DNA of 64,000 nt, taken from NCBI GenBank assembly GCA_036403235.1, contig DASWRI010000044.1, forward strand, positions 6,193-70,192, written 5' to 3'. The position numbers and the translations under genes are program-made. Each line of letters starts with the position of its first letter. Position 1 is the stretch's first letter. The stretch comes from Pyrinomonadaceae bacterium. Lineage in GTDB: Bacteria; Acidobacteriota; Blastocatellia; Pyrinomonadales; Pyrinomonadaceae. Under the pieces are notes generated by a model. The model was not told the origin of the DNA. It was given only the letters and a program-made list of their open reading frames with translations, and did not search any database. This document shows, in pieces, positions 7,558 through 64,000 of the stretch.

Positions 7558-7980
7558 ATGAAAAATGTGAGATTAAAACAATTCGGTTTGGCCTTATGCC
7601 TGGCTCTATCGCTTTTAATCTCGCCGGTTTCCGCCTGCGCTTGTTCGCACCATCATCCTGAGAACGCCGAATCGGAAATTTCTTCGCATCATCAACATTC
7701 GGAAGCGGCCGTACATCACCATGATTCCGAAGCCGACAACGCGGCTCAATCCGTAACTTCGCAAGACGAATGCTGCTGTTTGGAAACAGCACCGAAGGTT
7801 TCCGCCAAATCTGAAAACATAAAAATCGAAAAACAAAAGTCGGCGATGCTATCGCTCGCGCCGGTCGAAATAACTTTTGTTTCGCAAACGATTTCGGTCG
7901 AATCCGCATTTACCCGAAAGTTTTATTTAACAGATTCTTTCTACAATCTCACGCCCGGACGCGCTCCGCCCGCGTTATAA
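7558..7980 (+). CDS. secreted His/Cys-rich putative metal-binding protein
   Basis: Signal peptide MKNVRLKQFGLALCLALSLLISPVSA, followed by CACSHHHP, SSHHQH, VHHHD and DECCC clusters. Confidence 0.55.
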   Translation: MKNVRLKQFGLALCLALSLLISPVSACACSHHHPENAESEISSHHQHSEAAVHHHDSEADNAAQSVTSQDECCCLETAPKVSAKSENIKIEKQKSAMLSLAPVEITFVSQTISVESAFTRKFYLTDSFYNLTPGRAPPAL

Positions 7981-8099
7981 AACAGCGAATACAAATCACG
8001 AAAATATAGACAGGTTGTCTTTGACGACTTGAAACGGATTGCCGTCTCGAAAAACGGCAATTGTTGAAATACTGTTTTATAAATCAGGAGATAGAGAAG

Positions 8100-10076
8100 A
8101 TGAAAAAGATATTTTTATTAGCAATTTTCGCGCTCGTTTTCAGCGTGAATGCTTTCGCGCACGAAACTTTCAAGCTCGTCAGCAGCGAAAATAAAACTCT
8201 GAAATTGGAGGATTTGATAAAAATCGAGGCGCAGCGAACGCTCGGCAAAATAGATAAAACAAATCTGACTTTTACGGAAAAAGAAATTCGTCTGGTCGTT
8301 TTGACCGGCCCGGAAGACGATATGCTTTCTTACCGCATTCAGGGCGTCAGAAACCCGAATTTAGTCGTCCCGACGGGCGCAACGCTGAAGATTTTATTCG
8401 TTAATATGGACGAAGACATGCGCCACGATATTCGTTTCGGCCACGTCGAAGGCGATTTTCCGGTCGCGCCGGAAATCAAGGAGACGGCCGGAAGCGAGAG
8501 ATTAACCGCTAAATCCGAAGACGGAGTTTTGCAGGCGGAAGAAATCGTCATTCAGTCAATCGAAGACGGAGCTTATAAATATTTCTGTTCCGTCAGAGGA
8601 CACGCCAAAGGCGGAATGTGGGGAAATATTCTGGTAAACGTCAAACCCGGCGCTGATTTGAAAAAAGCCGAGAAAACCGTTCACGTTCATACCGCAGATG
8701 AAGATATGGATATGAACGAAAAAAAGACGGACGAAAAAAAATCAAACGACAATATGAAGGACATGAAAATGGACGATAAAAAGCCCAGTGATATGTCCGA
8801 CATGAAAATGGATGATAAAAAGTCCGACGATATGCCCGGTATGAATATGTCGAGCAGCAAAATGGTAATGTCCTCGGTTACCGACATCAATTCTCCGATG
8901 ACGCGCGAGAGTTCCGGCACTTCCTGGGTGCCGGACTCGACGCCGATGTATGCGACGACGAAGATGTTCAAAGACGGCGGAATGTTGATGTTTCACGGCA
9001 ATATGTTTCTGCGCTATACAAATGTCGGGTCGAGCCGCGATTTTAGCGTCGGCGGCAGAGGCGATAATGAAAGATTCGACGCGCCGTCGATGTTTATGTT
9101 GATGTATTCAAAGCCTTTAAGCGGGAAATCGCAAATCGGTTTGCGCGCGATGCTGAGTCTCGACCCGATTATCGAGCGCGGCTTCGGTTATCCGCTGCTT
9201 TATCAATCGGGCGAAAGTTTTCGCGGCGAGCCGATTCACGACCGCCAGCACCCGCACGATTTTGTTAGCGAGCTTTCGGCGACATATTCTTATAAAATTA
9301 ACGACAAGCAATCATTTTTCTTTTACGCCGGTTATCCGGGCGAACCCGCGCTCGGCCCGCCGACCTTTATGCACCGGTTTTCGGCCATGAACAACCCGGA
9401 CGCGCCGCTTTCGCATCACTGGCAGGATTCGACGCACATCACTTTCGGCGTTTTGACGGCGGGCTACAATTTCGGAAAATTCAAGCTTGAAGCGAGCGCG
9501 TTCAAAGGCCGCGAGCCGAACGAAAATCGCTGGGATTTCGACGCGCCGAAGCTCGATTCTTTCAGCGGCCGGCTTTCTTTTAATCCGACAAAAGAATGGG
9601 CCTTTCAAATTTCTTACGGTTATCTGAAAAATCCCGAACCGGGCGAGCCGGACTTGAAAATTTTAAGACGCACGACCGCTTCGGCAATTTACAATAAAAA
9701 ATTCAGCGACACAAAAAACTGGGCCAGTAGTTTTGTCTGGGGACAAAATTACGGAAACGGCGAGCGCACCAATGCTTTTCTGTTCGAGTCGGATTTTACA
9801 TTCGATAAAAATTCGATTTTCGGGCGCGTCGAAAGAGTGCAGAAATCCGGTCACGAACTCGTTTTGGACGAAATCGACCACGATAAAATCTTTTGGGTCG
9901 GCGGCTATTCAATCGGTTATCTGCGCGAGCTTTATAAAAACAAAAATTGGAACGTCGGGCTCGGCGCACAGGCTACTCTTTATCAAAATTCAATCGGATT
10001 AGTTTCGTATTACGGCGGCACGAATCATCAGGGCTGGCAGGTATTTCTGCGCATTCACTCTTCGATGATGAATTAA
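8100..10076 (+). CDS. cupredoxin / Met-rich linker / outer-membrane beta-barrel fusion protein
   Basis: Signal peptide. Type-1 copper-like ligand spacing C-x4-H-x4-M in YKYFCSVRGHAKGGMWGNILV. Two 39-bp tandem repeats encode DMKMDDKK(P/S)xDM (8760-8837). C-terminal roughly 390 aa has beta-barrel-like alternation. Confidence 0.7.
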   Translation: MKKIFLLAIFALVFSVNAFAHETFKLVSSENKTLKLEDLIKIEAQRTLGKIDKTNLTFTEKEIRLVVLTGPEDDMLSYRIQGVRNPNLVVPTGATLKILFVNMDEDMRHDIRFGHVEGDFPVAPEIKETAGSERLTAKSEDGVLQAEEIVIQSIEDGAYKYFCSVRGHAKGGMWGNILVNVKPGADLKKAEKTVHVHTADEDMDMNEKKTDEKKSNDNMKDMKMDDKKPSDMSDMKMDDKKSDDMPGMNMSSSKMVMSSVTDINSPMTRESSGTSWVPDSTPMYATTKMFKDGGMLMFHGNMFLRYTNVGSSRDFSVGGRGDNERFDAPSMFMLMYSKPLSGKSQIGLRAMLSLDPIIERGFGYPLLYQSGESFRGEPIHDRQHPHDFVSELSATYSYKINDKQSFFFYAGYPGEPALGPPTFMHRFSAMNNPDAPLSHHWQDSTHITFGVLTAGYNFGKFKLEASAFKGREPNENRWDFDAPKLDSFSGRLSFNPTKEWAFQISYGYLKNPEPGEPDLKILRRTTASAIYNKKFSDTKNWASSFVWGQNYGNGERTNAFLFESDFTFDKNSIFGRVERVQKSGHELVLDEIDHDKIFWVGGYSIGYLRELYKNKNWNVGLGAQATLYQNSIGLVSYYGGTNHQGWQVFLRIHSSMMN

Positions 10077-10121
10077 TATCGGATTAAAAAGCGTTTTCGT
10101 GAGGATGAGCAAACTGCTAAT

Positions 10122-10157
10122 AAAAAAAAGAGCGTCTTGATTGATGCTCTTTTTTTT
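10122..10157. terminator. bidirectional rho-independent terminator
   Basis: A8 tract, stem aagagcgtc/gatgctctt (one G-U pair), 6-nt loop, T8 tract. Lies between convergent genes. Confidence 0.65.
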
Positions 10158-10193
10158 GAACTTAGCTGTGCCGGATTATTGCTTCTGAACAGT

Positions 10194-12464
10194 TTATCTT
10201 AATTTTTCGAGACGGCGGCCGATGTCGCGGTAATCGACGTTTTCGGCGTAGATTTTTTCGAAATATTCGATTGCCTTTTCGTTGTCGCCGCCCGTTTCAT
10301 ACGCGTTGGCGATTTCATAAAAGAGCGCCTGCTTTTCTTCATCGTTCAAATCATTGACTTCGAAAGCGCGCCGATACCACATCAGAGCGAGATTCGGCAT
10401 CGCTTTTTCCATAAAACAATGGCCGAGAAGCGTTGCGCACTGGAAAAAACAGCGCGTTCGGTCGTTTGGCTTGACGAGATTGATGGCGTCCTGAAATTCG
10501 CGAATGGAATCTTCCATCAAGCCCATTTCCTTGTAGGCGATGGCCATGTGGTAATGCGTTTCGTAATCGCCCGTCGCTGCCGGCTCGGTTTCTTCAAAAC
10601 CGAGGTCGGTTTTGAATTCGCTTAGAATGTCGAATCTTTTCGCGTCCGTCACGGCTTGTGTCGTGTCTTCAGCCGTATCTTCAGCCGTATCTTCTATTGC
10701 GGCTTCCGTTGCGTCTTCGGCGACAACTTCTTCGGAAATTTCCGGTCGTTTGGATTTTTTCTTTTTCTTCGGTTTGCTTTTGGCGGCGAGCGTTTGCAGC
10801 GAATCGTCCAGTTGCAGGCGAAGCTCGGCTAATTCGTGCCGGTTTCCGAATTCTTCTTCGAGCGTGTTCAGCGTTTTTTCGGCTAATTCCTTATAGCCCT
10901 GCGCGATGTAAAACTCGACGCTCTCGACTTCCTGCACGAGTCTTACTGCGTCGGCCGGTTTCAGCTCGGCATTTTCAGATTCATCATCGTCGATTTCTTC
11001 GTCGCTGCGTGTTTTTTCGACGGCGCCGTCAACGATATATTCGTCAAAGCCGTCGCCTGCGAACGCAAATCCGTTTTCGCTTTTGTGCGAGCCGTTATGA
11101 TTTGTCTCGACGCCGAAATCCGCGCCGGAAAAATCGAAATCCGTGCTGAATTCGCCAAAGTTTCCATCAAAAGCCTGCCCGTTGCCGTTGGTCTGGTCGT
11201 TTAAATCGAAGCTTTCAAATTTCGGAGCGTCTTCGGTCAAATTCCCGGCGACCAGCACCGGCTCCAAATCAGTTTCCGGCAGACCGTATTCGGCTTTAAT
11301 TTCCTGCAGGCGCTGCGCGTATGCGGTTTCGTGCGGCGCAATCATGACGAGCTGCGAGAGCGCGTATCTTTCGTCGTCGACCGACTCGTTATGACGCGCG
11401 ATTTCGGCCAGCGTTTCCAGCGATTTTCTTAATTCGGACTCGTCCCGATGCCAGCCGTAATAGCGAACCGAAAGCCGCAAAGCATCGAGATGCTCCGGAT
11501 TTCTCGCCAGAATTTCGTTTGTCCAGTGGAGAAATTCCTCGGACTGCCCGCCGACCAGAAGATGCTCGGAAGACATCGAGAGAAGCCTCGACGCCGAATC
11601 CAAATCGTTTTTCTTCAGGTAAACTTCGACGAGTTCTAAAAATTTCGGGTAATTCGAAGGCTCATGCTCGACGAGCTTGATAATCGCGCGCTCGGCCTCC
11701 TGCGGATTGTCGGTTTCGATGTAGCAGTCAATCAATAGAAACAGAACTTCGCGATTATAAGGCTGCTCGACAAGAATATCTTCGAGAATTTTGGCCGCTT
11801 CCTCGGCGTAGTCGAGCTTTATCTGCGCGTTGACGTAGCCTTTCAGCGTCGGCAAATCGTAGCGGTTTACTTCCAAAGCTTTGGAAAAGGCGGTCAAAGC
11901 CGGTTCGTACTGTTTTTGCGCCGAAAGTCTCAGCCCGGCTTCCGAAAAAGCCTTTGCGGCTTCGTCCTTTTGATTTTCCTGCCAGTAAATATCGGCGATT
12001 TTCAGATAGATGCCCGTATCGTGCGAGTCGAGCTCGGCAATCTGTTTCCAAATCGCCAGCGCCTCGATTTTTTGTCCTTTGCGCTGATATTCTTCCGCCA
12101 GAGTCGTGTAGTGCGTGCGCGCTTCGGCAAACGAGCCTTTAGATTTGTATAAATGCGCGAGCTTGGCCGAAACTTCCATCGAATCGGGCTTGAGCCGCGA
12201 AATCTTGTTATAGACGGCAATCGCTTTTTGCGAAAATCCCTGAGTGTTGTAATGCTCGGCGACCTCCGTAAAACAGCTGACGGCTTCCTGCTGCTCGGAA
12301 TTTTTTATATACAAATCGCCGAGAATATTGAGCGTACCAAAATCCTTCGGGTCGTTTTCGACCACACGCTTGTATTCGCTAATCGCCGCCCGAATCTTGC
12401 CTTGTGCAAGAAATCGCTCAGCGTTTCGCATTGCTTTTATTTTATCGAAACTCATTGTGAACAA
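10194..12464 (-). CDS. TPR-repeat protein with acidic low-complexity linker
   Basis: 756 aa. Multiple 34-aa TPR-like helices at both ends. Central Asp/Glu-rich region (EDTAEDTAEDT) and a KKKKKSKR patch. Confidence 0.8.
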   Translation of the reverse strand: MFTMSFDKIKAMRNAERFLAQGKIRAAISEYKRVVENDPKDFGTLNILGDLYIKNSEQQEAVSCFTEVAEHYNTQGFSQKAIAVYNKISRLKPDSMEVSAKLAHLYKSKGSFAEARTHYTTLAEEYQRKGQKIEALAIWKQIAELDSHDTGIYLKIADIYWQENQKDEAAKAFSEAGLRLSAQKQYEPALTAFSKALEVNRYDLPTLKGYVNAQIKLDYAEEAAKILEDILVEQPYNREVLFLLIDCYIETDNPQEAERAIIKLVEHEPSNYPKFLELVEVYLKKNDLDSASRLLSMSSEHLLVGGQSEEFLHWTNEILARNPEHLDALRLSVRYYGWHRDESELRKSLETLAEIARHNESVDDERYALSQLVMIAPHETAYAQRLQEIKAEYGLPETDLEPVLVAGNLTEDAPKFESFDLNDQTNGNGQAFDGNFGEFSTDFDFSGADFGVETNHNGSHKSENGFAFAGDGFDEYIVDGAVEKTRSDEEIDDDESENAELKPADAVRLVQEVESVEFYIAQGYKELAEKTLNTLEEEFGNRHELAELRLQLDDSLQTLAAKSKPKKKKKSKRPEISEEVVAEDATEAAIEDTAEDTAEDTTQAVTDAKRFDILSEFKTDLGFEETEPAATGDYETHYHMAIAYKEMGLMEDSIREFQDAINLVKPNDRTRCFFQCATLLGHCFMEKAMPNLALMWYRRAFEVNDLNDEEKQALFYEIANAYETGGDNEKAIEYFEKIYAENVDYRDIGRRLEKLR

Positions 12465-12675
12465 AATGAAATCAGAATCCGAACGTTTGATAAGAAAAAG
12501 AATATTATCGAAGAGGTGGACGGCAATCTTAGCTAAACTGCCAAATTTAAGCTAACATGTTCCGGTAATTTATGTCAACGTGTTTTAACAATATTTGTTA
12601 TTTTTAACGTAAAATTTTTGTAAATTCTCAACTTTGATTTTTGCAGCGTAATTTTTTAGTCTAATTCTTTGTCAA

Positions 12676-12744
12676 AGTCTGGAGTCTCAAGTCTGAGGTC
12701 TTGAGTCAAAGATTTTCCGACTTGAGACTTCAGACTTGAGACTC
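12676..12744. repeat. heptamer-word inverted repeat, AGTCTNA family
   Basis: agtctggagtctcaagtctgaggtcttgagtc, then an 11-nt loop, then gacttgagacttcagacttgagactc. Ends 10 nt before ATG 12755. Confidence 0.8.
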
Positions 12745-12754
12745 GATTTTATTT

Positions 12755-13798
12755 ATGAAAGCTTTAATTTTAGCCGGAGGAAAAGGCACGCGGCTGCGGC
12801 CTCTGACGGTTTACACGCCGAAACCGGTTGTCCCGTTTTTGAATCAGCCGTTTCTGCTTTACCAGATAAATATTCTGCGTCGCGCGGGGATAAAGGATAT
12901 TACGCTGTCTTTGAGTTATCAGCCCGACAAAATCGAGCAGGTTTTGGGCGACGGTTCTGATTTCGACGTTAATTTGAGCTTTGTCACCGAACCGTCGCCG
13001 ATGGGCACGGGCGGCGCATATAAATACGCGGCGGACGGATTCCGCGAAACGACCGTAGTTTTTAACGGCGATATTTTAACTGACGTCGATATTGCAAAAG
13101 TCATCGAGTTTCACCGCGAAAAAAAAGCGGAAGCGACGATTGTTTTGACGCCGGTCGAAAATCCTTCGGCTTACGGTCTGGTCGAAACCGAGGCCGACGG
13201 ACGCGTTTTGCGTTTTCGCGAAAAACCGAAGCCCGAGGAACTGGACGAACTGACGACGAATAACATCAACGCCGGAATTTACGTTTTGGAGCCGACCGTT
13301 CTCGGCATTATCCCGAAAGGCGAAAACCGTTCGTTTGAATACAACGTCTTTCCGGATTTACTCGAAAAGCAGAAGGCTTTTTACGCCTACGTTTTGCAAA
13401 AAAACTACTGGCGCGACATCGGCACGCCGAAAAGCTACCTGGACGCGCACCAGGATTTTTTCGCCGGAAAAATAAAAAATTTCGAGATTAAAAATAAATC
13501 CGCCGGTGCCGACATTTCGCACAAAGCTTCGGTCGATAAAAACTCGGTCATCGCCGACGAATGCGTCATCAAGCCGGGCGCGCGCATTACAAATTCGGTA
13601 ATCGGCGCGGGCGTCCACATCGAGGAAAAAGCAATCGTCGAAAATTCCGTCATCTGGGCGCACACGCGCATCTCGGCCGCCGCGCACATCACCAACGCAA
13701 TCATCGGCCGGAGCTGCTACATCGGCAAAAACGCGACGGTCGGCGCAGGCGTCGTTCTCGGAGACAAAACTTCTCTGACCGATTACACAAAAGTCTGA
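12755..13798 (+). CDS. sugar-1-phosphate nucleotidyltransferase (mannose-1-P guanylyltransferase-like) with C-terminal left-handed beta-helix
   Basis: MKALILAGGKGTRLRPLT signature. Hexapeptide repeats near the C-terminus. Confidence 0.85.
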   Translation: MKALILAGGKGTRLRPLTVYTPKPVVPFLNQPFLLYQINILRRAGIKDITLSLSYQPDKIEQVLGDGSDFDVNLSFVTEPSPMGTGGAYKYAADGFRETTVVFNGDILTDVDIAKVIEFHREKKAEATIVLTPVENPSAYGLVETEADGRVLRFREKPKPEELDELTTNNINAGIYVLEPTVLGIIPKGENRSFEYNVFPDLLEKQKAFYAYVLQKNYWRDIGTPKSYLDAHQDFFAGKIKNFEIKNKSAGADISHKASVDKNSVIADECVIKPGARITNSVIGAGVHIEEKAIVENSVIWAHTRISAAAHITNAIIGRSCYIGKNATVGAGVVLGDKTSLTDYTKV

Positions 13799-53132: not shown

Positions 53133-53807
53133 ATGAAAAAAGACGGGCAAGCGGCGGCATTTTACGATTTAGAAGGAACACTCGTGAGCACGAACCTCGT
53201 GCACACGCTCGGATTTTACGCGCGTCGCCAGCAGGGCTTATTCAAAACCATCAAAAAAAGCGCTTCGACGCTGGCCAAACTGCCGCTTTTCGGCGTCACG
53301 GATTTGTATTCGCGCAATGTTTTTAACGAGCTTTTTTTTCAGAGCTACAAAGGCGAATCGAATGACCGGCTACGCTATTTTTCGGAAGAATTGTTCGAAG
53401 ACGTTCTCAAACCCGCGATTTTCGACGGAACGCCCGAGCTTATCGCGCAGTCGAAAAAAATCGGGCAGCGGCAGGTCGTCATTACCGGCGCACTCGACTT
53501 TACGATTGAGCGCCTGATGGATTATCTCGGCATAGACGATTACGTCGCCAACCGGCTGGAATTCGTCAACGGCTACGCGACCGGCAGAATTTTGCCGCCC
53601 GTGCTGGCGTCGGCGACAAAAGCGAAATGGATACGCGAATACGCCGAGCGCGAAAATATAAATTTATCGGAATCTTACGCTTATTCCGATTCGATTTCCG
53701 ATTTGCCGATGCTCTCGATTGTCGGTCATCCGGTCGCGGTCAATCCGGATTTTCGTCTGAAACAAACTGCTTTGCAGCACGATTGGGCGATTTTGAATTT
53801 GAAGTAA
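53133..53807 (+). CDS. HAD-IB family hydrolase (SerB/phosphatase-like)
   Basis: FYDLEGTL motif I, cap helices, and YSDSISDLPML motif IV. Confidence 0.78.
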   Translation: MKKDGQAAAFYDLEGTLVSTNLVHTLGFYARRQQGLFKTIKKSASTLAKLPLFGVTDLYSRNVFNELFFQSYKGESNDRLRYFSEELFEDVLKPAIFDGTPELIAQSKKIGQRQVVITGALDFTIERLMDYLGIDDYVANRLEFVNGYATGRILPPVLASATKAKWIREYAERENINLSESYAYSDSISDLPMLSIVGHPVAVNPDFRLKQTALQHDWAILNLK

Positions 53808-54304: not shown

Positions 54305-55906
54305 ATGGCTTTGCAATTACGCAGAAAAACACACGAATCAATCATCTATATCGATAAGGACAGCGCGCCGCGCATTATGCCGTTCGGCGAGGATTTTATT
54401 ATCGAAGACATTCCGGTCGGGACGCGCGTCATTTATCCGAATCCGCCGATAAAAGGTTTGCCGAACCGCGAGGCCGCGATTCGATACGCGGTCAATCATC
54501 CGATTGACGCGAAACCGCTTTACGCGCAGCTTGAGCCGGGAATGCGTGTGACGATTGCGATGGACGACATTTCGCTGCCGCTGCCGCCGATGGCTTTGCC
54601 CGATATGCGCCAGACGATGCTCGAAGTCGTTTTGGATATGTGTGCGGCGAACGGCGTCGACGACGTGCATTTGATTGTCGCCAATTCGCTTCACCGCAAA
54701 ATGACGGCCTGGGAAATGGAGCGAATGGTCGGCTCGACGATTTTCAACGAATTTTATCCCGAACGTTTTTACAATCACGACGCCGAGGACGACGAAAATT
54801 TAATCACGCTCGGACACACGCGCCACGACGAGCCGCTGCGCGTCAATCGCCGCGCCATCGAGAGCGATATTTTGATTTACATCAACATCAATCTCGTGCC
54901 GATGGACGGCGGGCACAAATCGGTCGCCGTCGGGCTTTGCGATTACGAATCTCTGCGCGCGCATCACGAGCCGCAGACTATTCTCGACTCGCATTCGTAT
55001 ATGGATCCGCCCGCGTCGGAATTGAATCACAAGGTCATACGGCTCGGAAAACTGGTTGACGAGCACTGCAACGTCTTTCACATCGAAACCGCGCTCAACA
55101 ACAAAATGTTTCCCGAAGGCTACGACATTTTGACGCGCAACGAGGACGAATTTTCGTTCGCCGACCGGATGAAATGGGAAGTTATGAAGCGTACGTTTTC
55201 AAAAATGCCGCGCGCCGCGCGCCGCAAAATGCTTCACGCGATTCCGGCGCAGTATGAATTAATCGCCTGTTACGCGGGCGAAACGGAAAAAGTCCACGAA
55301 AAGATTCTCGAAAAAAATTACCAGCAATACGAAATCCCGGTCAAAGGCCAGTGCGACATAATGATTACGGGCATTCCCGACATCTCGCCGTATAACGTCT
55401 ATTCTGCTTTGAATCCGCTGCTCGTGCAGGTAATGGCGCTCGGCTATCACTTCAATATGTTTCGCAACAAGCCTTTACTTCGGAAAGGCGGCGTGATGAT
55501 TATCACGCACCCGTGTTTTGACGAGTTCGACCATAATTTTCACCCGTCGTATATCGAATTTTTCCATCGTCTTCTGCCCGAATCGCGCGACGCGTTTTAT
55601 CTGCGCGAGAAATACGAGCGCGAGTTTGCGACCAATCCGGCCTACGTCGAGATGTACCGGCGCGGCAACGCCTATCACGGCGCGCACCCGTTTTTTATGT
55701 GGTACTGGGGCGAAAACGGTCGCCAGCACGTCGGCAAAGTCATCGTCGCCGGCGCGGAAAACGCGCACGTTCCCGAAATCTTGGGCTGGGAACGCGCCGA
55801 CAATCTGACCGAAGCTATTGCCATGGCACGCTCGTTTATGGGCAGAAACGCCGAGATTACGATGCTGCACCAGCCGATAATCGGGCTTTGCAATGTGACG
55901 GATTAG
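54305..55906 (+). CDS. LarA-like (DUF2088, nickel-pincer lactate-racemase-related) protein
   Basis: N-terminal block [14 protein letters not shown]...[11 protein letters not shown]...DGGHKSV resembles the LarA N-terminal domain. At 533 aa it is longer than canonical LarA. Confidence 0.6.
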
Positions 55907-55941
55907 TATTATACGTGCTGAATACGTATAATAAATTTTCT

Positions 55942-56172
55942 ATGCAAAAGAAATTAACGATTACGATTGACGAGCGCGTTTACGAAGGTCTGCAAACGGT
56001 TGTCGGGCGCGGGAAAATCAGCCAGTTTATTGAGGTTTTGCTGCGTCCGCACGTTTTGAAACAGGATTTGGACGCAGCTTACAAGGAAATGTCTGAAGAC
56101 GAGGCGCGTGAAACCGAAGCGTTGGAATGGTCGGAAGCGACAATTGGAGACGTAAATAATGAAACGTGGTGA
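55942..56172 (+). CDS. ribbon-helix-helix-type antitoxin candidate
   Basis: 76 aa. KLTITIDERVYEGL beta-strand/helix start and an acidic C-terminal tail. Overlaps the toxin start by 14 nt. Confidence 0.6.
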   Translation: MQKKLTITIDERVYEGLQTVVGRGKISQFIEVLLRPHVLKQDLDAAYKEMSEDEARETEALEWSEATIGDVNNETW

Positions 56173-56479
56173 AGTCTGGTGGGTGAATTTCGAGCCGGCT
56201 ATCGGCGGCGAAATCAAAAAACAGCGTCCCGCCGTTATCCTGAGCAACGACGTTTCCAACAAATATCTCAACCGCGTTCAAGTCGTGCCGCTTTCGAGTC
56301 AAATTGACAAACTTTATCCGAGCGAGGCTTACGTCCAATTCGGCGGAAAACAGGCAAAAGCCTTAGCCGACCAACTGACAACCGTCAGCAAACAGCGTCT
56401 GCTAAATAAAGCCGGACATTTATCAAAAGCAGATGTTGAGCAAGTTGAAAGAGTAGTTAAGATACAGCTTGATTTATAA
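56159..56479 (+). CDS. mazF: MazF/PemK-family type II toxin endoribonuclease
   Basis: MKRGEVWWVNFEPAIGGEIKKQRPAVILSND...VVPLSS. 106 aa. Confidence 0.9.
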   Translation: MKRGEVWWVNFEPAIGGEIKKQRPAVILSNDVSNKYLNRVQVVPLSSQIDKLYPSEAYVQFGGKQAKALADQLTTVSKQRLLNKAGHLSKADVEQVERVVKIQLDL

Positions 56480-56549
56480 AAAGATGACGATACTTTATCT
56501 TACGTTAATTTGACAATAAAAGATTTGCATTGCTAGTGGGGAATTGATT

Positions 56550-57209
56550 ATGGATAGTTCAACAAAAATTATGCGGTTAGAAATAGATGGTCAATGGACT
56601 GCCGACGATATGATAAATTCAATTAAAGCAGTTCAAGATTTGTATAATCTAAGGCTAATTTTGCAATTTGAATATGAAGAATGGTTAGAATGGCGAGAGT
56701 TTTATCATGAATTAAAATTTTTTCCACCTTTTCGTAAAAGAATGCAAGCTAGATTATTTTTTGAAAGAGATAATTTCCCATCTTGTTCAACGATAATCCC
56801 ACTAAACGAAGATGAGCTTAGTCGAATTTCCGAGTTATGTTATCCGAATGAAATTTTAAATGTTCGCCGCATAAAATATGGTTCTAAGGGAATTAAAGAC
56901 TTAGCGGGAATTGGCGAGATAATCGGTCATGTTAAGGATTTCATTCTTGAACTAATCCATATTAGAAAAGACAAAGAAAAACGCAGCCTCGAAAATGAAG
57001 AAAGGAAACTAAAGAATCAACACTTACAACTAGAAAATGCCCAAAAATATGTTGAGTTAGCTAAAAGTATTGGCTTAAAAAAAACTGAAATTAGGCAATT
57101 GGTTAAATTAGCTGATAACAAACAGGAAAAATTAGTTGATTTAATTGATGAAGGGAAAATATACGGAGTTAGATTATTAAATTCTAACGAAGAAAATTTA
57201 GACATATAA
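56550..57209 (+). CDS. hypothetical protein in a low-GC islet (C-terminal coiled coil)
   Basis: 219 aa from ATG 56550. No motif recognised. Strongly AT-rich coding sequence. Confidence 0.55.
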   Translation: MDSSTKIMRLEIDGQWTADDMINSIKAVQDLYNLRLILQFEYEEWLEWREFYHELKFFPPFRKRMQARLFFERDNFPSCSTIIPLNEDELSRISELCYPNEILNVRRIKYGSKGIKDLAGIGEIIGHVKDFILELIHIRKDKEKRSLENEERKLKNQHLQLENAQKYVELAKSIGLKKTEIRQLVKLADNKQEKLVDLIDEGKIYGVRLLNSNEENLDI

Positions 57210-57222
57210 CTTCGTTTGATTT

Positions 57223-60200
57223 ATGAAATTATCACCAACCCAAATTTTTAAAGGTAAAAAGATTTTCTTTATCGGCGGCACGGGCTTTGTCGGTAAGGTT
57301 ACGCTTTCGATGCTGCTCAATAATTTTCCCGACATCGGGCGAGTTTATGCGACCGTCAGAGCGCGAGATGCGAAAGAATCGGAAATTCGTTTTTGGACGA
57401 GCATCGTCACAAGCCCGACGTTTGACCCTTTAAGAGAAAAATACGGCGACAAATTTGAAAATTTTATCCGCGAAAAAGTCGTGCCGGTGAACGGCGACGT
57501 CGGCAACGAATTTCTCGGTTTAGATGAAAAGGAAGCGAAAAAGTTAATGCGCGACTGCGACATTATCATCAACGGCGCGGGCAACGTGACGTTTAATCCG
57601 CCGCTCGAAAGCGCCTTGAGAACAAACGTCGTCGGCTCAAACAATATTTTGAAAATGGCGCGCCTGATGAAGCGCCCCGCGCTCGTGCACGTTTCGACCT
57701 GTTTTGTCGCCGGTAAACGGAGCGGCGCGATTTGGGAAAACGAGCCGGTCGTCGGGTATTTCCCGAGAAAAAACGAGCTCGTCGGCACCACCTTCGACGT
57801 CAACAAGGAAATCGAAGACTGCGCCCGCCTGTCCGAACAGGCGCGTCAGGAAGCCGACGACGCGATGCAGATTGCGAAATTTCGCGAGCAGGCGAGAACG
57901 CGTTTCGAGGAAGAAGGACGCGACCCGGACGACGAGACGGAATTGAAATCGGCGATTTTCCGCGAGCGCAAGATGTGGATTCGTGAGCGGACGACCGAAC
58001 TCGGTGCGGAGCGCGCCGAATATTGGGGCTGGACGAATATCTACACTTATTCGAAATCTCTGGCCGAGCAAATCATCGCGCAGCAGGACGACGTCGTCAA
58101 GATTCTCATCCGGCCGTCGATTGTCGAATCTTCGCAAAGTTACCCGTTTCCGGGCTGGAACGAAGGCTTTACGACGACTGCGCCGTTGATTTTAATCGCG
58201 CTGCGCGGCCAGCCGATTATTCCGGTCAACGAAAAGCTCGTTCTCGACATAATTCCGGTCGATATGGTCTCGGGCGCAATCCTCGGCGCGGCCATGAACG
58301 CGCTCGTCGACGACACTCCGCCGCTCGTTTTTCAGGCCTGCTCGGGCGATTCGAATCCGAACGATATGGAGCGCATCGTCGGTCTCGTCGGTCTTTACAA
58401 ACGCGAGCATTTCAAGGAAAAGGAAACCGGAAATAAATTGGTAAATAACGTCGCCGCGATGATTGAAGCCTCGCCCGTAACGCAGAAAACCTACGAAAGA
58501 GTGTCCGCGCCGATGCTCAACAAACTGGCTAAGCGCGCCAACGTTTTGCTCGATAGGGCCAAGCCGACGTGGGCCGGCGGGCGGCTCTCAAACATCGTTT
58601 CCGATTTGCAGAAATCGGTCGAAAATTTCGAGCGGACGACGCAGGAGACGATGGACGCGTTCTCGATGTTCAAGCCGTTTATGATTGACAACGAATATCT
58701 GTATCGCGCCGACAATCTGCGCGCGCTGATGTCGCTCGTCAAGGAAAAGGAAAAAGATTTGCTGCCGTGGTATCCCGAGCGGCTCGATTGGTACGACTAC
58801 TGGCTCAACGTCCATTTTCCCGGAATGAGAAAATGGGTTTTGCCGCAGCTCGAAGAAGATTTAAAAATTCAGGAGCGCCGCTCTTACACATACAAGGATT
58901 TGCTCGATTTGTTCGACACTTCGGTCAAACGCTTTTCGACGCGCGTCGCGATGCGCATCGAGCGCAACGGGCGCAAAGAGCAGTACACTTTTGAAGACGT
59001 CAGGGAACTGACTTTGCGCGCCGCCGGATTTTTCGCCGCGAGCGGCATCAAGCAGAACGACCGCGTCATTTTGTTTTCAAACAATATGCCCGAATGGGGC
59101 TTGTCGTATTTCGGCATTTTGAAAACCGGCGCGACCGCGATTCCGATTGACCCGGCCAGCTCGATTGACGAAATCATAAATTTTGCGCGCGCGGGCGAGG
59201 CTTCGGCGATTGTTATTTCCACGAAATTAGCCGGCGAAAATCCCGAATTGGCCAAAAAACTGAAGGAAGCAAAACTGAAGTTAAACGTCTGGACGTTTGA
59301 AGAAGTTTTCGAGATGCACCCGGAAATCGAGGAAGCCAAACGCATCGCGCTGCTGCCCGGTAAAATTTTGTCGAATTCGGTCGCGTCCCTGATTTTTACT
59401 TCGGGCACGACCGGAACGCCGAAAGCCGTCATGCTCTCGCACAAAAATTTCGTCAATATGATTTCGATGTTGTCGAGCGTTTTGGAAATGGACATCACCG
59501 ACGGCGTTTTGTCGGTTCTGCCGATGCATCACACGTTTGAGTTCAGCGCCGGATTTTTGACGCCTTTTTCAAACGGGACGCAGATTACGTATCTCGACGA
59601 GCTTTCGGCGGAAGAGCTTTCGCGCTCAATCGAAAACGGCCACGTGACGGGAATGGTCGGCGTTCCGGCGCTCTGGGAAATGCTCCATCGCCGGATAAAG
59701 ACGCGTCTCAGGGAGCGCGGCGACTGGTTTGCCGATTTTGCCGACAGCGTCATCGACTTCAACGCCTGGATACGCGACAACACGCCGTTTAATCTCGGCC
59801 CGATTATCTTTTTCCCGATTCATCAGGGAATGGGCGGGCGGATGCGCTATCTGATTTCGGGCGGCTCGGCTTTGAGCGAAAAAGTCCAGAAAGACTTGCA
59901 CGGATTAGGATTTACCGTTCTTGAAGGTTACGGTTTGACCGAATCTTCGCCCGTCCTGACGGTCGCGCGTCCGGGAAACAAATTGTTAAGGGGAAGCGTC
60001 GGCAAGCCTCTGCCCGGAATCGAGGTAAAAATCGACTCGCCCGATGAAAACGGCGTCGGTGAAGTTCTCGCGCGCGGGCAGAACATAATGCTCGGCTATT
60101 ACAATAACGAGGAAGCGACCGAAGCCGTCCTTCATGACCGCTGGTTGAAAACGGGCGATTTGGGCAAACTCGACGAAGACGGAAATCTATACATCGTCGG

Positions 60201-61641
60201 GCGTTCAAAGGACGTTATTATCGATTCGAACGGCAAAAACATATACCCGGACGAAATCGAGGATTTATACGGAAAGTCCGGTTTTATCAAGGAATTATCA
60301 ATCGTCGGCCTGGCGGACGATGACGGCGGCGAGAAAATCGCGGCGCTCGTCGTGCCCGATTACGAGCACGACATCGCCTTGAGCCGAAGCGATACGAACA
60401 AAAAAGTCGAAGAACATTTCCGCGAGGTTTCCGCCGCGCTGCCGTTTTTCAAACGCGTCAAGGTTTTGCACCTGACGCCGTTTGAGCTGCCGCGGACGGC
60501 GACCAGAAAAGTTAAACGTCCCGAAGTCGTCGAGATGCTTCAATCGCTCGAAGAACGGGCGAAAAAGAAAACAAAGGCGGTCGCCGAATCAAAAGGCGAC
60601 GACAATGTTCTGTGGCTTCGCAAAATCGTCGCGACCGTTTCAAACCGTCCGCTTTCCGACATCGCCGTCGAAGACAAATTAGCCGATTTGGGCTTTGACA
60701 GCTTGATGTTTGTCGAGCTTCAAGCGGCGGTCGAAGACGCCGGCGGGCGCGTCGCGTCGCCCGATACTTTGAACGAAGTGCAGACCGTTCGCGAGCTTTT
60801 AACGGCGGTTCAGCGCGTCGATACGCGCAAGAAAATCGTCGACGAGCCGCGCGCCGAGGAGAAAAAGGAAGAGGAAATTTTTATTCCGTCGATTGTCCGC
60901 AAGCTCGGAAACTCAATCGTCGATTTTGCGCAGGAGACGCTTTACAACTCGGTTTTGAACACATCGATTGAAGGCGAGTCGAACGTTCCGGTTCACGCCA
61001 ATTTTATCGTCGCGTCAAATCACACGTCGCATCTCGATATGGGGTTGGTGAAACGTGCGCTCGGAAAGGACGTCGCCGAGCAGACGGTCGCGGTCGCGGC
61101 GGCCGATTACTGGTTCGACACGAAATACAAGCGCGCGTATATGAACAATTTCACGACGCTGATTCCGATTGAGCGTTCGGGAAGTTTGCGCCAATCTTTG
61201 CGGCACGTCACACAAATTTTGAACGAAGGCTACAACACTTTGATTTTTCCCGAAGGCGGACGCCAGACATCCGGCGAGATTGCCGAATTCAAACCGATTA
61301 TTGGCTATCTCGCATTAAACGAAAAAGTCGGGATTCTGCCGGTTTATCTGTGGGGAACATACGAAGCGTTTCCGAAAGGAATGACGATTCCGCCGCGCTC
61401 GAGCATCGGCGCTAACATCGGCGCGAAAGTCGGAAGATTTTTGGAATACGAACAGCTTCTGGAGATGACCAAAGGCGTGCCGAACACCGAGGCGTATCGC
61501 CTGATTGCCGCGCGCGTCCAGCACGAAATCGAAAATATGCGCGACGGTCGGCGCGACAAATTCGACGTCGCGGCGGTTCGCAAACGTTGGCGCGCCGAAC
61601 GCAGAAAATCGCGCAAGCAGGCGCCTGTAATTGAAGATTAA
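57223..61641 (+). CDS. four-module lipid enzyme: fatty-acyl reductase / acyl-AMP ligase / ACP / 1-acylglycerol-3-phosphate acyltransferase (ElbD-like)
   Basis: GGTGFVGK (57274-57297) and YTYSK. TSGTTGTPK (59398-59424). LGFDSLM with Ser codon at 60700-60702. NHTSHLD (61018-61038). FPEGGR (61246-61263). Confidence 0.85.
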   Translation: MKLSPTQIFKGKKIFFIGGTGFVGKVTLSMLLNNFPDIGRVYATVRARDAKESEIRFWTSIVTSPTFDPLREKYGDKFENFIREKVVPVNGDVGNEFLGLDEKEAKKLMRDCDIIINGAGNVTFNPPLESALRTNVVGSNNILKMARLMKRPALVHVSTCFVAGKRSGAIWENEPVVGYFPRKNELVGTTFDVNKEIEDCARLSEQARQEADDAMQIAKFREQARTRFEEEGRDPDDETELKSAIFRERKMWIRERTTELGAERAEYWGWTNIYTYSKSLAEQIIAQQDDVVKILIRPSIVESSQSYPFPGWNEGFTTTAPLILIALRGQPIIPVNEKLVLDIIPVDMVSGAILGAAMNALVDDTPPLVFQACSGDSNPNDMERIVGLVGLYKREHFKEKETGNKLVNNVAAMIEASPVTQKTYERVSAPMLNKLAKRANVLLDRAKPTWAGGRLSNIVSDLQKSVENFERTTQETMDAFSMFKPFMIDNEYLYRADNLRALMSLVKEKEKDLLPWYPERLDWYDYWLNVHFPGMRKWVLPQLEEDLKIQERRSYTYKDLLDLFDTSVKRFSTRVAMRIERNGRKEQYTFEDVRELTLRAAGFFAASGIKQNDRVILFSNNMPEWGLSYFGILKTGATAIPIDPASSIDEIINFARAGEASAIVISTKLAGENPELAKKLKEAKLKLNVWTFEEVFEMHPEIEEAKRIALLPGKILSNSVASLIFTSGTTGTPKAVMLSHKNFVNMISMLSSVLEMDITDGVLSVLPMHHTFEFSAGFLTPFSNGTQITYLDELSAEELSRSIENGHVTGMVGVPALWEMLHRRIKTRLRERGDWFADFADSVIDFNAWIRDNTPFNLGPIIFFPIHQGMGGRMRYLISGGSALSEKVQKDLHGLGFTVLEGYGLTESSPVLTVARPGNKLLRGSVGKPLPGIEVKIDSPDENGVGEVLARGQNIMLGYYNNEEATEAVLHDRWLKTGDLGKLDEDGNLYIVGRSKDVIIDSNGKNIYPDEIEDLYGKSGFIKELSIVGLADDDGGEKIAALVVPDYEHDIALSRSDTNKKVEEHFREVSAALPFFKRVKVLHLTPFELPRTATRKVKRPEVVEMLQSLEERAKKKTKAVAESKGDDNVLWLRKIVATVSNRPLSDIAVEDKLADLGFDSLMFVELQAAVEDAGGRVASPDTLNEVQTVRELLTAVQRVDTRKKIVDEPRAEEKKEEEIFIPSIVRKLGNSIVDFAQETLYNSVLNTSIEGESNVPVHANFIVASNHTSHLDMGLVKRALGKDVAEQTVAVAAADYWFDTKYKRAYMNNFTTLIPIERSGSLRQSLRHVTQILNEGYNTLIFPEGGRQTSGEIAEFKPIIGYLALNEKVGILPVYLWGTYEAFPKGMTIPPRSSIGANIGAKVGRFLEYEQLLEMTKGVPNTEAYRLIAARVQHEIENMRDGRRDKFDVAAVRKRWRAERRKSRKQAPVIED

Positions 61642-61645
61642 ATTT

Positions 61646-63010
61646 ATGACGAAATCTCTAAAAGTAAATTTTTTGGTGTCCGCATTTTTGATTTTCGCGC
61701 TTGTTTCGTCTTCGTTCGGTCAGGCGAAAGTCGATAAAAAACAAATGACGGCCGAGGTCAAAGCGGAATTTCTGCACGCCTGGAACGGGTACAAAAAATA
61801 CGCGTGGGGACACGACGATTTGAAGCCTTTGAGCAAAACTTACAAGGATTGGTACGGCGAGACGCTCCTGATGACGCCGGTCGACGCGCTCGACTCGCTC
61901 GTTTTGCTCGGCTTCAAAACGGAAGCCGATAAAACACGCAAATACATCACGGACAATCTTTCGTTCGACAAAGACGTTTACGTCCAGAATTTTGAAATCA
62001 CGATTCGTCTGCTCGGCGGTTTGCTCTCAAGCTATCAAATGACGGGCGACAAAAAACTGCTCGCTCTGGCCGAAGATTTGGGCAACCGGCTTTTGCCCGT
62101 TTTCGCGTCGCCGACCGGAATTCCGTATCGCTACGTCAATCTCAAAACCGGAAAAGTAAAAGGCGAAGTGACAAATCCGGCCGAAGCGGGAACATTGCTG
62201 ATTGAATTCGGGACTTTGAGCAAGCTGACGAAAAAGCCTGTATTTTACGATAAAGCGAAACGCGCTCTGGTCGAAACTTACAATCGCCGCTCGCCGCTCG
62301 GCCTGGTCGGAACGCGCATCAACGTCGAGACCGGAAAATGGACGAATACCGACTCGCACGTCAGCGCCGAGATTGATTCGTATTACGAGTATCTTTTGAA
62401 GTGCGCGATTCTTTTCGACGATAAAGACTGTCGCAAAATGTGGGAAGAAGGCATTGCGGCGATAAATAAAAATCTGGCCGACGAAGTGCGCGGCGAGCTT
62501 TGGTACGGCCACGCCGATATGACTTCGGGAAAGCGAACCGCGACCGTGTCCGGCGCGCTCGACGCGTTTTTCCCGGCGATTCTGGCCTTGTCGGGCGATT
62601 TGGCGCGTGCCAAACGCCTCCAGGATTCAAGCTTCAAAATGTGGACGAAGTATGACATCGAGCCCGAAGAATACGATTATCAGAAACAGGAAATCGGCGA
62701 CGCGAGCTATCATCTGCGGCCGGAAATCGTCGAATCGACGTATTATCTTTATCAATACACTTCGGACGAAAAATATCTGCAAATGGGCAAAACTTTTTTC
62801 GACGATTTTGTAAAATACTGTAAGACGGACGACGCATACGCCGTCTTAAAAAGCGTCGTCACCAAAGAAAAAGCGGACACGATGCACAGTTTTCTGTTTG
62901 CGGAAACTTTCAAATATTATTATTTATTATTTGCGCCGCCGCGGGCTTTGGACTTTAAGAAAGTTGTTTTTAATACCGAAGCGCATCCGGTAAAAAAGAC
63001 CTGGAAATAA
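61646..63010 (+). CDS. secreted glycoside hydrolase family 47 (class I alpha-mannosidase) homologue
   Basis: Signal peptide. AWxGYKKYAWGHDDLKP and FEITIRLLGGLLSSY blocks are characteristic of GH47. Starts 4 nt after the upstream stop. Confidence 0.78.
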   Translation: MTKSLKVNFLVSAFLIFALVSSSFGQAKVDKKQMTAEVKAEFLHAWNGYKKYAWGHDDLKPLSKTYKDWYGETLLMTPVDALDSLVLLGFKTEADKTRKYITDNLSFDKDVYVQNFEITIRLLGGLLSSYQMTGDKKLLALAEDLGNRLLPVFASPTGIPYRYVNLKTGKVKGEVTNPAEAGTLLIEFGTLSKLTKKPVFYDKAKRALVETYNRRSPLGLVGTRINVETGKWTNTDSHVSAEIDSYYEYLLKCAILFDDKDCRKMWEEGIAAINKNLADEVRGELWYGHADMTSGKRTATVSGALDAFFPAILALSGDLARAKRLQDSSFKMWTKYDIEPEEYDYQKQEIGDASYHLRPEIVESTYYLYQYTSDEKYLQMGKTFFDDFVKYCKTDDAYAVLKSVVTKEKADTMHSFLFAETFKYYYLLFAPPRALDFKKVVFNTEAHPVKKTWK

Positions 63011-63011
63011 A

Positions 63012-64000
63012 ATGGCAGCTAGAAAAACAAAAGCATTGGCGAAAATTGAAAAGAAAATCCTAATCACCGGCGGGACGGGATTTTTAGGAACGCACATTGT
63101 CCGGCAGTTTCTGGAAAATGGCGAGAAAAATCTGCGCGTGATGGCATCGAGCGTTCCCGTCTGGATGCGAGACGCGGGCGTTGAAGCGGCGGAAGGCTCG
63201 GTGACGAACCGGGAAGACGTGGCCAATGCAGTCAAAAACGCTTCGGCCGTTTATCATCTTGCGGGCCGGGTTTCGCGCGACAACGAAGACGCCGCATTGA
63301 TGAACAAAATTCACGTCGAAGGCACGAGAATTTTATGCGAGGCGGCGAAGGAATCGGGCGTGAAAACGTTTGTTTTAGCTTCGTCGAGCGGCACGATTGC
63401 CGTTTCCGAAAACGAGGACATTCTCGACGAAACTTACCCGACGCCCGTCGAAATCATCTCGCGCTGGGCGTATTACGCTTCGAAATATTATCAGGAAAGA
63501 ACCGCTCTCGAAAATTTCGACGGCAAAGGCTTAAAGCTCGTGATTTTGAATCCGTCGCTGCTTTTGGGAACGGGCGACGAGCGTTTAAGCTCGACCAAAG
63601 TAATTCTGGATTTTCTCGCGCGAAAAATTCCCTACACGCCGTCGGGCGGGCTTTCGTTTGTCGATGCGCGCGACGCGGCGGCTGCTTTTATTAATTCTCT
63701 CGAAAAGGGAAGCCACCGCGAAAAGTACTTACTCGGCGCGGCGAATATGACTTTCGCGCAGTTTTTCGGGCGGCTCGCACGTCTTTCGGGCGTTTCCGCT
63801 CCCGTCTTGCGCGTACCGAAACGGCTGGCGATGGCGGGCGCGAGCTTGATTGATTCGGTCTTTAAGAACTGGAATAAACCGTCGCCGATTCAGCCGAAAG
63901 AAGTCGAGCAGGCCGAATATTTCTGGTATTTCGACTCGGCAAAAGCCGCAGAAGAACTCGATTTTGCGCCGCGCGATGCGCAGGAAACTCTGCAGGACAC
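63012..64000 (+). CDS. NAD-dependent epimerase/dehydratase (extended SDR), 3-prime end outside window
   Basis: ILITGGTGFLGTH Rossmann motif and YYASK (YxxxK). ATG lies 1 nt after the GH47 stop. The frame is open to the window end and is not in the ORF track. Confidence 0.8.
   Translation, partial: MAARKTKALAKIEKKILITGGTGFLGTHIVRQFLENGEKNLRVMASSVPVWMRDAGVEAAEGSVTNREDVANAVKNASAVYHLAGRVSRDNEDAALMNKIHVEGTRILCEAAKESGVKTFVLASSSGTIAVSENEDILDETYPTPVEIISRWAYYASKYYQERTALENFDGKGLKLVILNPSLLLGTGDERLSSTKVILDFLARKIPYTPSGGLSFVDARDAAAAFINSLEKGSHREKYLLGAANMTFAQFFGRLARLSGVSAPVLRVPKRLAMAGASLIDSVFKNWNKPSPIQPKEVEQAEYFWYFDSAKAAEELDFAPRDAQETLQD

Follow-up and report, generated by a model that had tools for sequence, protein, structure and literature searches.

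Why does a gene for a predicted mannosidase of glycoside hydrolase family 47 (GH47) lie between two genes of an apparent ether-lipid operon? The question is raised by a stretch of 64,000 nucleotides from a Pyrinomonadaceae bacterium (GenBank assembly GCA_036403235.1, contig DASWRI010000044.1), here called the window, which comprises positions 6193-70192 of contig C44 of genome G000. The contig ends 3.5 kb beyond the window, and the annotated stretch runs from window position 49.7 kb to the contig end. Sampled genomes are labeled G### (G000 is the window's own genome) and fetched neighborhoods L###. In the window, the GH47 gene is preceded by a gene for a four-domain enzyme resembling ElbD of Myxococcus xanthus and followed by one for an extended short-chain dehydrogenase/reductase (SDR) of ElbE type. 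Here we present evidence that GH47 is probably a glycan-scavenging passenger in an elb operon, likely co-transcribed with it and not acting on the lipid.

According to this account, the stretch would hold the 3' half of an elb-type operon for ether lipids in a member of the Pyrinomonadaceae (Acidobacteriota subdivision 4), with genes for a HAD hydrolase (ElbB-like), a LarA homolog, the ElbD-like enzyme and the SDR, and GH47 would be a cargo gene lodged between elbD and elbE in one subclade. Its product would be an intact, Sec-exported, Ca-dependent, inverting exo-alpha-1,2-mannosidase, trimming terminal alpha-1,2-mannose from high-mannose glycans (fungal or plant glycoproteins, mannan) outside the cytoplasm. 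It would work alongside the two GH92 mannosidases of G000 and, in relatives, alongside an exported M16 peptidase whose gene shares the slot. Its transcription would probably start from the operon promoter simply through the location of the gene.

A predicted exported alpha-1,2-mannosidase

The GH47 protein matches PF01532 (Glyco_hydro_47) over profile positions 2-454 of 455 (E 7.3e-120; 401 bits against a cut-off of 22.9). Its relatives of solved structure include CkGH47 from Caulobacter K31 (4ayo, E 2e-75), human endoplasmic reticulum (ER) mannosidase I (1fmi and 1x9d, E about 1e-68) and mouse class I mannosidases. E117 (in FEITIR), D244 (in DSYYEY), R358 and E360 (both in LRPE) and E420 are aligned with the same residues of 4ayo and 1fmi, and T444 is present in the C-terminal NTEAHP. 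By analogy with the human enzyme, we take E117 to be the catalytic acid, E360 the catalytic base and T444 the Ca-binding threonine. In an alignment of 58 full-length orthologs (six partial sequences, L015, L017, L039, L041, L042 and L054, were omitted), the residues E117, R121, D244, E248, L305, R358, E360, E363, E420, T444 and E445 are invariant in all 58, whatever the gene neighborhood, and no active-site residue shows a clade-specific change between ElbD-linked and unlinked sequences. D244, R358 and L305 align with D249, R363 and L310 of CkGH47, an enzyme that hydrolyzes alpha-1,2-mannobiose and for which these three residues are named at the active site (PMC10685318).

A signal peptide and the block FEITIRLLGGLLSSY, which begins at residue 116, had been noted when the DNA was read on its own (the sequence-only reading, made from the letters and their open reading frames). 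The block is present, and the N-terminus MTKSLKVNFLVSAFLIFALVSSSFGQ is built like a Sec signal peptide, as judged by eye and with a hydropathy script. By this crude script, 37 of the 39 orthologs with a placeable start have a hydrophobic core near the N-terminus, the best 12-residue segment averaging at least 2.16 on the Kyte-Doolittle scale; in the two misses the start had been picked far upstream, and seven loci yielded no start. The window GH47 thus looks like an intact alpha-1,2-mannosidase that is predicted to be active and exported. It is the only GH47 of G000, whose two GH92 genes lie on other contigs. A recent horizontal acquisition was considered and rejected, as nothing points to it: the G+C content (0.495-0.512) is close to that of the neighboring genes, and the sequences of the family group together in the tree described below.

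The ElbD-like enzyme, the SDR and the transcription unit

The gene upstream of GH47 encodes a protein with matches to the Pfam families NAD_binding_4 (1.3e-52), AMP-binding (9e-71), PP-binding (2e-12) and Acyltransferase (1.3e-18), as well as to Sterile (3.4e-08; 34 bits, slightly below the cut-off of 35.4 bits). These occupy residues 18-353 and 466-540 (NAD_binding_4 and Sterile), 564-960 (AMP-binding), 1131-1195 (PP-binding) and 1249-1376 (Acyltransferase). Reductase, acyl-AMP/CoA ligase, carrier and AGPAT-like acyltransferase are thus combined in one polypeptide in the same order as in M. xanthus ElbD, and the protein is predicted to be an ether-lipid enzyme of ElbD type with four domains (fatty-acyl reductase, acyl-AMP ligase, carrier protein and PlsC-type acyltransferase). 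In the M. xanthus elbA-elbE operon, elbB encodes a HAD-like phosphohydrolase and elbD a reductase/acyl-CoA-synthetase/ACP/AGPAT protein (Lorenzen et al. 2014, as summarized in PMC9131029); according to the same summary, elbC is of 'unknown function', elbE lies 3' of elbD and its inactivation lowers ether lipids, and ElbD was reported to be soluble and suggested to be cytosolic (PMC9131029). ElbD homologs in Acidobacteriota subdivision 4 have already been published (bioRxiv 10.64898/2026.06.23.733905).

The SDR belongs to PF01370 (NAD-dependent epimerase/dehydratase; E 6.2e-30), and the motifs read earlier from the DNA, GGTGFLG and YxxxK, were found at residues 20-26 and 154-158 (YYASK). The best NCBIfam match is to TIGR03466, the model of the hopanoid-associated sugar epimerase HpnA, with 205.3 bits against a cut-off of 367.65, so that the protein is not a member of HpnA; among the NCBIfam matches, all of which are below their cut-offs, HpnA, the sterol enzyme SdmB and the OleD-type 2-alkyl-3-oxoalkanoate reductase rank ahead of GalE. 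The best relative of solved structure is 3wj7, a putative uncharacterized oxidoreductase (E 4.7e-35). In 18 loci (L051, L061, L062, L064-L074, L076-L078 and L091) the SDR gene follows the ElbD-like gene directly, with no GH47 present, at SDR identities of 50-79% and in some cases with an ElbD only 50-62% identical to that of the window. An SDR gene lies downstream of GH47 in 27 of 44 GH47 loci; it is absent in 12 with at least 2 kb of flank, 11 of which also have no ElbD upstream (the exception being L020), and the flank is too short in five. Around 16 GH47 loci from genomes in which GH47 is unlinked to ElbD, no PF01370 protein was found among the scanned open reading frames (ORFs) of at least 100 aa.

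Because the SDR stays with ElbD in the absence of GH47 and its best matches act on lipids, it is read as an ElbE-type enzyme; judged by SDR family and by position after ElbD, it is the ElbE-type partner of ElbD. Its most likely role in the ElbD pathway would be the reduction of a lipid carbonyl, and the keto group of an alkyl- or acyl-dihydroxyacetone-phosphate-type intermediate would be the obvious candidate substrate if the eukaryotic route is a guide.

The distances given in the sequence-only reading, 4 nt between the ElbD-like and GH47 genes and 1 nt between GH47 and the SDR gene, agree with the coordinates; the four bases are ATTT. An alternative in-frame start of GH47, the TTG at 61631, would overlap the ElbD-like stop. 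The proposal of that reading that all three genes share a transcript has also gained support, as a scan for promoters and terminators placed no terminator-like hairpin between them, and the strongest one (an 11-pair stem) lies 24 nt 3' of the SDR stop; the scan returned four promoter-like and 12 terminator-like sites, fewer than the means of shuffled sequences (5.4 and 17.2), so that the position of the hairpin is a hint only. From this packing, GH47 is very probably read from the operon transcript. No RNA run containing the DNA of the window turned up among the public sequencing runs searched; what did turn up was a soil DNA run, possibly the source, and another run with a small share. Reading onward in the contig, as that reading had advised, completes the SDR at 345 aa (L002 6205-7242), 49 nt outside the window.

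Occupancy of the elbD-elbE slot and its explanation

The ElbD-like protein was searched in 401 genomes of the phylum (the tallies over ElbD and GH47 genomes include three flagged as unpublished, G049, G152 and G024, on which no specific claim depends). Full-length homologs are present in all 27 other genomes of the family and in G000 (28/28). Those of a second family are about 50% identical to the query, and those of several further families about 31%. GH47 is distributed differently. PF01532 scores above its cut-off in 36 of the 401 genomes, and GH47 occurs in 23 of 61 genomes of the family in a one-per-genus sample; close homologs were also found in metagenome-assembled genomes (MAGs) of Pseudomonadota and Ignavibacteriota. 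Together with the solved and characterized bacterial CkGH47, these counts make the statement that bacterial members of GH47 are few, on which the sequence-only reading had relied, a dated one.

Among the 28 family genomes, GH47 lies at most 6 kb downstream of ElbD in seven (genera g1, g3 and g6), lies on another contig in nine (g2, g4 and g7), is ambiguous in one, and was not found above the cut-off in 11, all of which have the ElbD-like gene. In the second family, genome G041 carries GH47 294 kb away from ElbD. The gene next to ElbD in the 28 genomes is most often the SDR gene (14), followed by an M16 peptidase gene (8) and GH47 (3); two have neither within 1.5 kb, and one (G354) was not examined. 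When the view was turned around to the 44 loci with close relatives of the window GH47, which are mostly from Pyrinomonadaceae and other Acidobacteriota MAGs and thereby place the window in the subdivision 4 group, an ElbD-like gene or a remnant of it was found upstream on the same strand in 22, at 8 nt to 3.8 kb (tblastn coordinates); it is absent in 13 with at least 4 kb of upstream flank, and nine have too little flank. The order ElbD-like, GH47, SDR recurs in other genomes, so that the complete lack of this synteny elsewhere, named beforehand as a reason to doubt the coupling, was not observed.

The slot also accepts other genes. The insert of about 3 kb between ElbD and GH47 in relatives encodes an exported-looking M16 (insulinase-type) peptidase of about 940 aa with a signal-like N-terminus (L016 7135-9966; L116 1-270). 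It precedes GH47 in most loci and follows it in L008 (11456-14278), L018 and L090; in L008 and L018 the slot further holds Roco, CBM9/DUF5916 and DDAH-like genes. In G429, of the same genus as the window, ElbD is followed by M16, which is cut off by the end of the contig after 97 residues; another contig begins at M16 residue 90 and continues with GH47 and the SDR gene. G000 itself has no M16 ortholog, its best match being 35% identical.

Signs of decay were also seen. In L017 (3114-7596) the SDR gene downstream is intact, but the GH47 match ends at residue 335, and all that is left of ElbD, 3.2 kb upstream, is 65 residues of its C-terminus. Two family genomes hold GH47 fragments only, G201:C37:59069-59773 (residues 225-451) and G425:C16:158423-158629 (residues 385-453), which are likely pseudogene remnants. 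Such pseudogene-like fragments fit a dispensable gene.

In a maximum-likelihood tree of the 58 GH47 sequences (from a quick search, rooted at the midpoint and with SH-aLRT as the sole support measure), the sequences of the family cluster together. Those of the unlinked genera form a clade of ten rows. The ElbD-linked rows occupy two clades, one of 17 and one of 18 rows, and L032 is a further linked row. Nested inside one of these two clades are L003-L006, which are unlinked, and L034, which is linked to GH92. With lengths of 0.09 and 0.04, the stem branches of the two ElbD-linked clades are short, and hence no burst of change accompanied the relocation of GH47. The tree fits an old resident GH47 that would have relocated to the elbD-elbE slot in one subclade, with at least one later departure from it.

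Away from ElbD, a GH92 alpha-mannosidase gene lies directly upstream of GH47 in L034 and L036. In L022 (a Dokdonella MAG, 9974-13696) the two are fused as GH47-GH92, next to genes for an MFS transporter and a protein of the GlcNAc-2-epimerase family; L045 (an Ignavibacteriales MAG, 7652-11293) encodes a GH92-GH47 fusion with the opposite domain order. These fusions are two-headed alpha-mannosidases. The contexts of these loci point to the breakdown of mannosides. The layout of a mannan or N-glycan utilization locus was found in these four loci only. Beside the window GH47, no glycan-binding, transport or other glycosidase gene was found in the window or in the following 3.5 kb. The cultured type genus Pyrinomonas grows on mannose and proteinaceous substrates, and ether and membrane-spanning lipids make up over 40% of its lipid (PMC4644332).

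Several observations weigh against the passenger reading. In the subclade, the embedding of GH47 is tight and old. The ElbD and GH47 genes are 4 nt apart in the window and in L008 (with the same TAA-NTTT-ATG) and 15 nt apart in L010, and in L011, L013, L032 and L055 the GH47 start overlaps the elbD stop by 8 nt; these junctions persist across GH47 identities of 67-81%. The gaps between GH47 and the SDR gene are likewise small (-1 to 9 nt in L011, L013, L016, L021, L035 and L055). Besides inertia, selection for co-expression could account for such long retention. The 22 ElbD-linked loci, being kin, do not represent 22 independent events. In the unlinked genera of the family the neighbors of GH47 are genes for a CAP-domain protein, OsmC, an S9 peptidase, cysteinyl-tRNA synthetase and ABC transporters, and no glycan-utilization neighbors were found there; the substrate is therefore deduced from the GH47 family and a few GH92-linked loci.

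The alternative closest to these observations is co-regulation without shared chemistry, in which exported GH47 and M16 would be kept in the elb operon since co-expressing glycoprotein scavenging with ether-lipid synthesis pays, for example under starvation. Tight or overlapping junctions retained at 20-30% protein divergence, the occupation of the slot by two different exported hydrolases in both orders and the filling of two tree clades by ElbD-linked rows would all be expected of it. However, in half of the 28 family genomes the SDR gene comes straight after elbD, GH47 is missing from 11 and unlinked in nine, and in L003-L006 and L034 it has moved out of the slot again. As a gene without a promoter of its own is held by its dependence on the operon, and the genomes concerned are kin, we regard selection for co-expression as unlikely, with a small chance of being right, and on the same grounds a direct chemical link as a good deal less probable. 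In the latter, exported GH47 would trim or remodel a mannose-bearing ether lipid or envelope glycoconjugate with a lipid part made by ElbD and ElbE, as the operon-like packing and the gene order conserved in the subclade might suggest. Yet no glycosyltransferase or sugar-activating gene was seen from window position 49.7 kb to the contig end, GH47 is absent or unlinked in most ElbD-bearing genomes, its other contexts are GH92 mannosidases or unrelated genes, and its active site carries no change particular to the linked clades. In Pyrinomonas, moreover, the main lipids are reported to be phosphatidylethanolamine and phosphatidylcholine (PMC4644332). An exported hydrolase would also hardly act on the intermediates of an ElbD that was reported to be soluble and suggested to be cytosolic.

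A broader version would make GH47 (with M16 in relatives) and the elb genes parts of one program, either through trimming of such a glycoconjugate or through envelope remodeling and glycoprotein scavenging organized in a single transcription unit. It would be in keeping with the 8-nt overlaps with elbD seen in several divergent genomes, but we consider it improbable to about the same degree as the direct link. Least credible, to the point of being nearly negligible, is a sugar-handling pair of GH47 and the SDR (a mannosidase with a sugar or sugar-nucleotide epimerase or reductase) that merely adjoins ElbD. The SDR does belong to the epimerase/dehydratase family, with weak GalE-type matches, and it does follow GH47 in most of the 44 loci; against this, it accompanies ElbD where GH47 is lacking and does not accompany GH47 away from ElbD, its best family matches act on lipids, and elbE inactivation lowers ether lipids in M. 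xanthus (PMC9131029). The passenger reading accommodates the patchy occurrence of GH47, the constancy of the SDR beside ElbD and the intact catalytic residues. These three features also leave without support the earlier hints of a mannose-decorated lipid or envelope product and of a non-hydrolytic role for the fold; as regards the latter, the alignment proposed with those hints found every catalytic and Ca-site residue in place, and the loss of residues combined with separate promoters that was held to count against the coupling was not seen.

Known systems and remaining features of the locus

With CkGH47 and human ER mannosidase I the window protein shares the full-length GH47 domain, the acid/base and Ca-site residues and the equivalent of L310, and with CkGH47 also the format of a single-domain bacterial protein of about 450 aa; it differs from them in its location inside a lipid operon. 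The M. xanthus elb operon resembles the locus in the HAD gene (ElbB-like), the ElbD domain order and the SDR gene after elbD. In contrast to that operon, the window has GH47 between elbD and the elbE-like gene, a LarA homolog in the place before elbD, and a MazF-type module and an AT-rich ORF ahead of elbD; no elbA-like gene was identified in the annotated stretch. Orthologs at 60-80% identity adjoin or are fused to GH92 in mannoside loci (L022, L034, L036 and L045), and G000 has its two GH92 genes, whereas the window GH47 lacks adjoining genes for glycan binding, transport or other glycosidases. A literature search over titles and the openings of abstracts found no paper on GH47 in an elb cluster, and the word 'mannosidase' does not occur in the sponge elb preprint (10.64898/2026.06.23.733905).

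For lipid biochemistry the passenger reading brings little gain; it is rather a warning that, within one bacterial family, the tight packing of an operon is no safe guide to function. The comparison fixes the SDR as the partner of ElbE type that goes with ElbD in subdivision-4 Acidobacteria, a group with ether and membrane-spanning lipids that are relevant to paleoclimate proxies based on branched glycerol dialkyl glycerol tetraethers (brGDGT). The elbD-elbE junction tolerates inserted genes for exported-looking hydrolases, and the comparison adds a well-conserved bacterial GH47 clade, some members of which are fused to GH92, as possible soil enzymes for mannoprotein degradation.

The features of the locus are listed in Table 1.

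Table 1. Features of the elb-type locus in window coordinates, unless a neighborhood label is given
Feature	Position	Strand	Remarks
HAD-IB hydrolase, ElbB-like by family and position	53133-53807	+	PF12710 E 2.2e-30; TIGR01490 above cut-off
LarA homolog (NCBIfam LarAH14/15/16)	54305-55906	+	NF052592 805 bits, cut-off 740
Stretch resembling a type II toxin-antitoxin module	55699-56479		
MazF/PemK-type toxin gene	56159-56479		Pfam E 1.2e-27
AT-rich stretch	56500-57299		31% G+C
orf221	56544-57209		221 aa, TTG start
ElbD-like ORF	57223-61641	+	1472 aa; stop TAA 61639-61641
GH47 alpha-1,2-mannosidase homolog	61646-63010	+	454 aa; ATG 61646; stop TAA 63008-63010
Signal-peptide-like GH47 N-terminus, residues 1-26	61646-61723	+	MTKSLK / hydrophobic core / SFG-Q
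ElbE-like extended SDR	63012-64000 in window	+	ATG 63012; 345 aa in total; end 49 nt outside window
168-aa ORF	L002 7333-7839, just outside window	+	3' of the hairpin; no Pfam family at E <= 0.01

The HAD gene also occurs upstream of the LarA homolog in L008, L011, L013 and L025. The LarA family comprises hydroxyacid isomerases with a nickel-pincer cofactor. A LarA homolog lies upstream of the ElbD-like gene in 21 of 29 ElbD loci and in 15 of 44 GH47 loci (tblastn; 67-96% identity), including L076 of the second family (67% identity), and in some loci it lies only a few bases from the ElbD-like gene (L035). Sitting in the place before elbD, it may be the elbC counterpart, a candidate assignment by position; if it is correct, a LarA-type enzyme would be tied to bacterial ether-lipid synthesis. 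Another candidate for the ElbC equivalent, orf221, was rejected: it belongs to no Pfam or NCBIfam family, tblastn gave no match to it in the related loci that were searched, and its G+C content is 31%. Other acidobacterial families have distant ElbD-like proteins of about 30% identity; around these, no SDR of the window type was found in 11 loci with 4-kb flanks, and a HAD gene is adjacent in two of these; the 11 loci were searched by tblastn only and are silent on elbE linkage there.

Between the LarA homolog and elbD lies what resembles an inserted type II toxin-antitoxin module, in which a small ORF with a faint match to VapB-like antitoxins lies ahead of the toxin gene. The stretch directly before the elbD start, which contains orf221, looks like foreign DNA by its G+C content (about 50-55% in the neighbors) and may carry the promoter of elbD, GH47 and the SDR gene. 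At the other end of the locus, the 168-aa ORF is followed by two convergent genes for an amidase and a TPR membrane protein. Elsewhere in G000, a second, shorter relative of ElbD (G000:C36:22670-25252; about 930 aa, about 32% identity) comprises the part from the ligase to the acyltransferase only and is also present in many genomes of the phylum.

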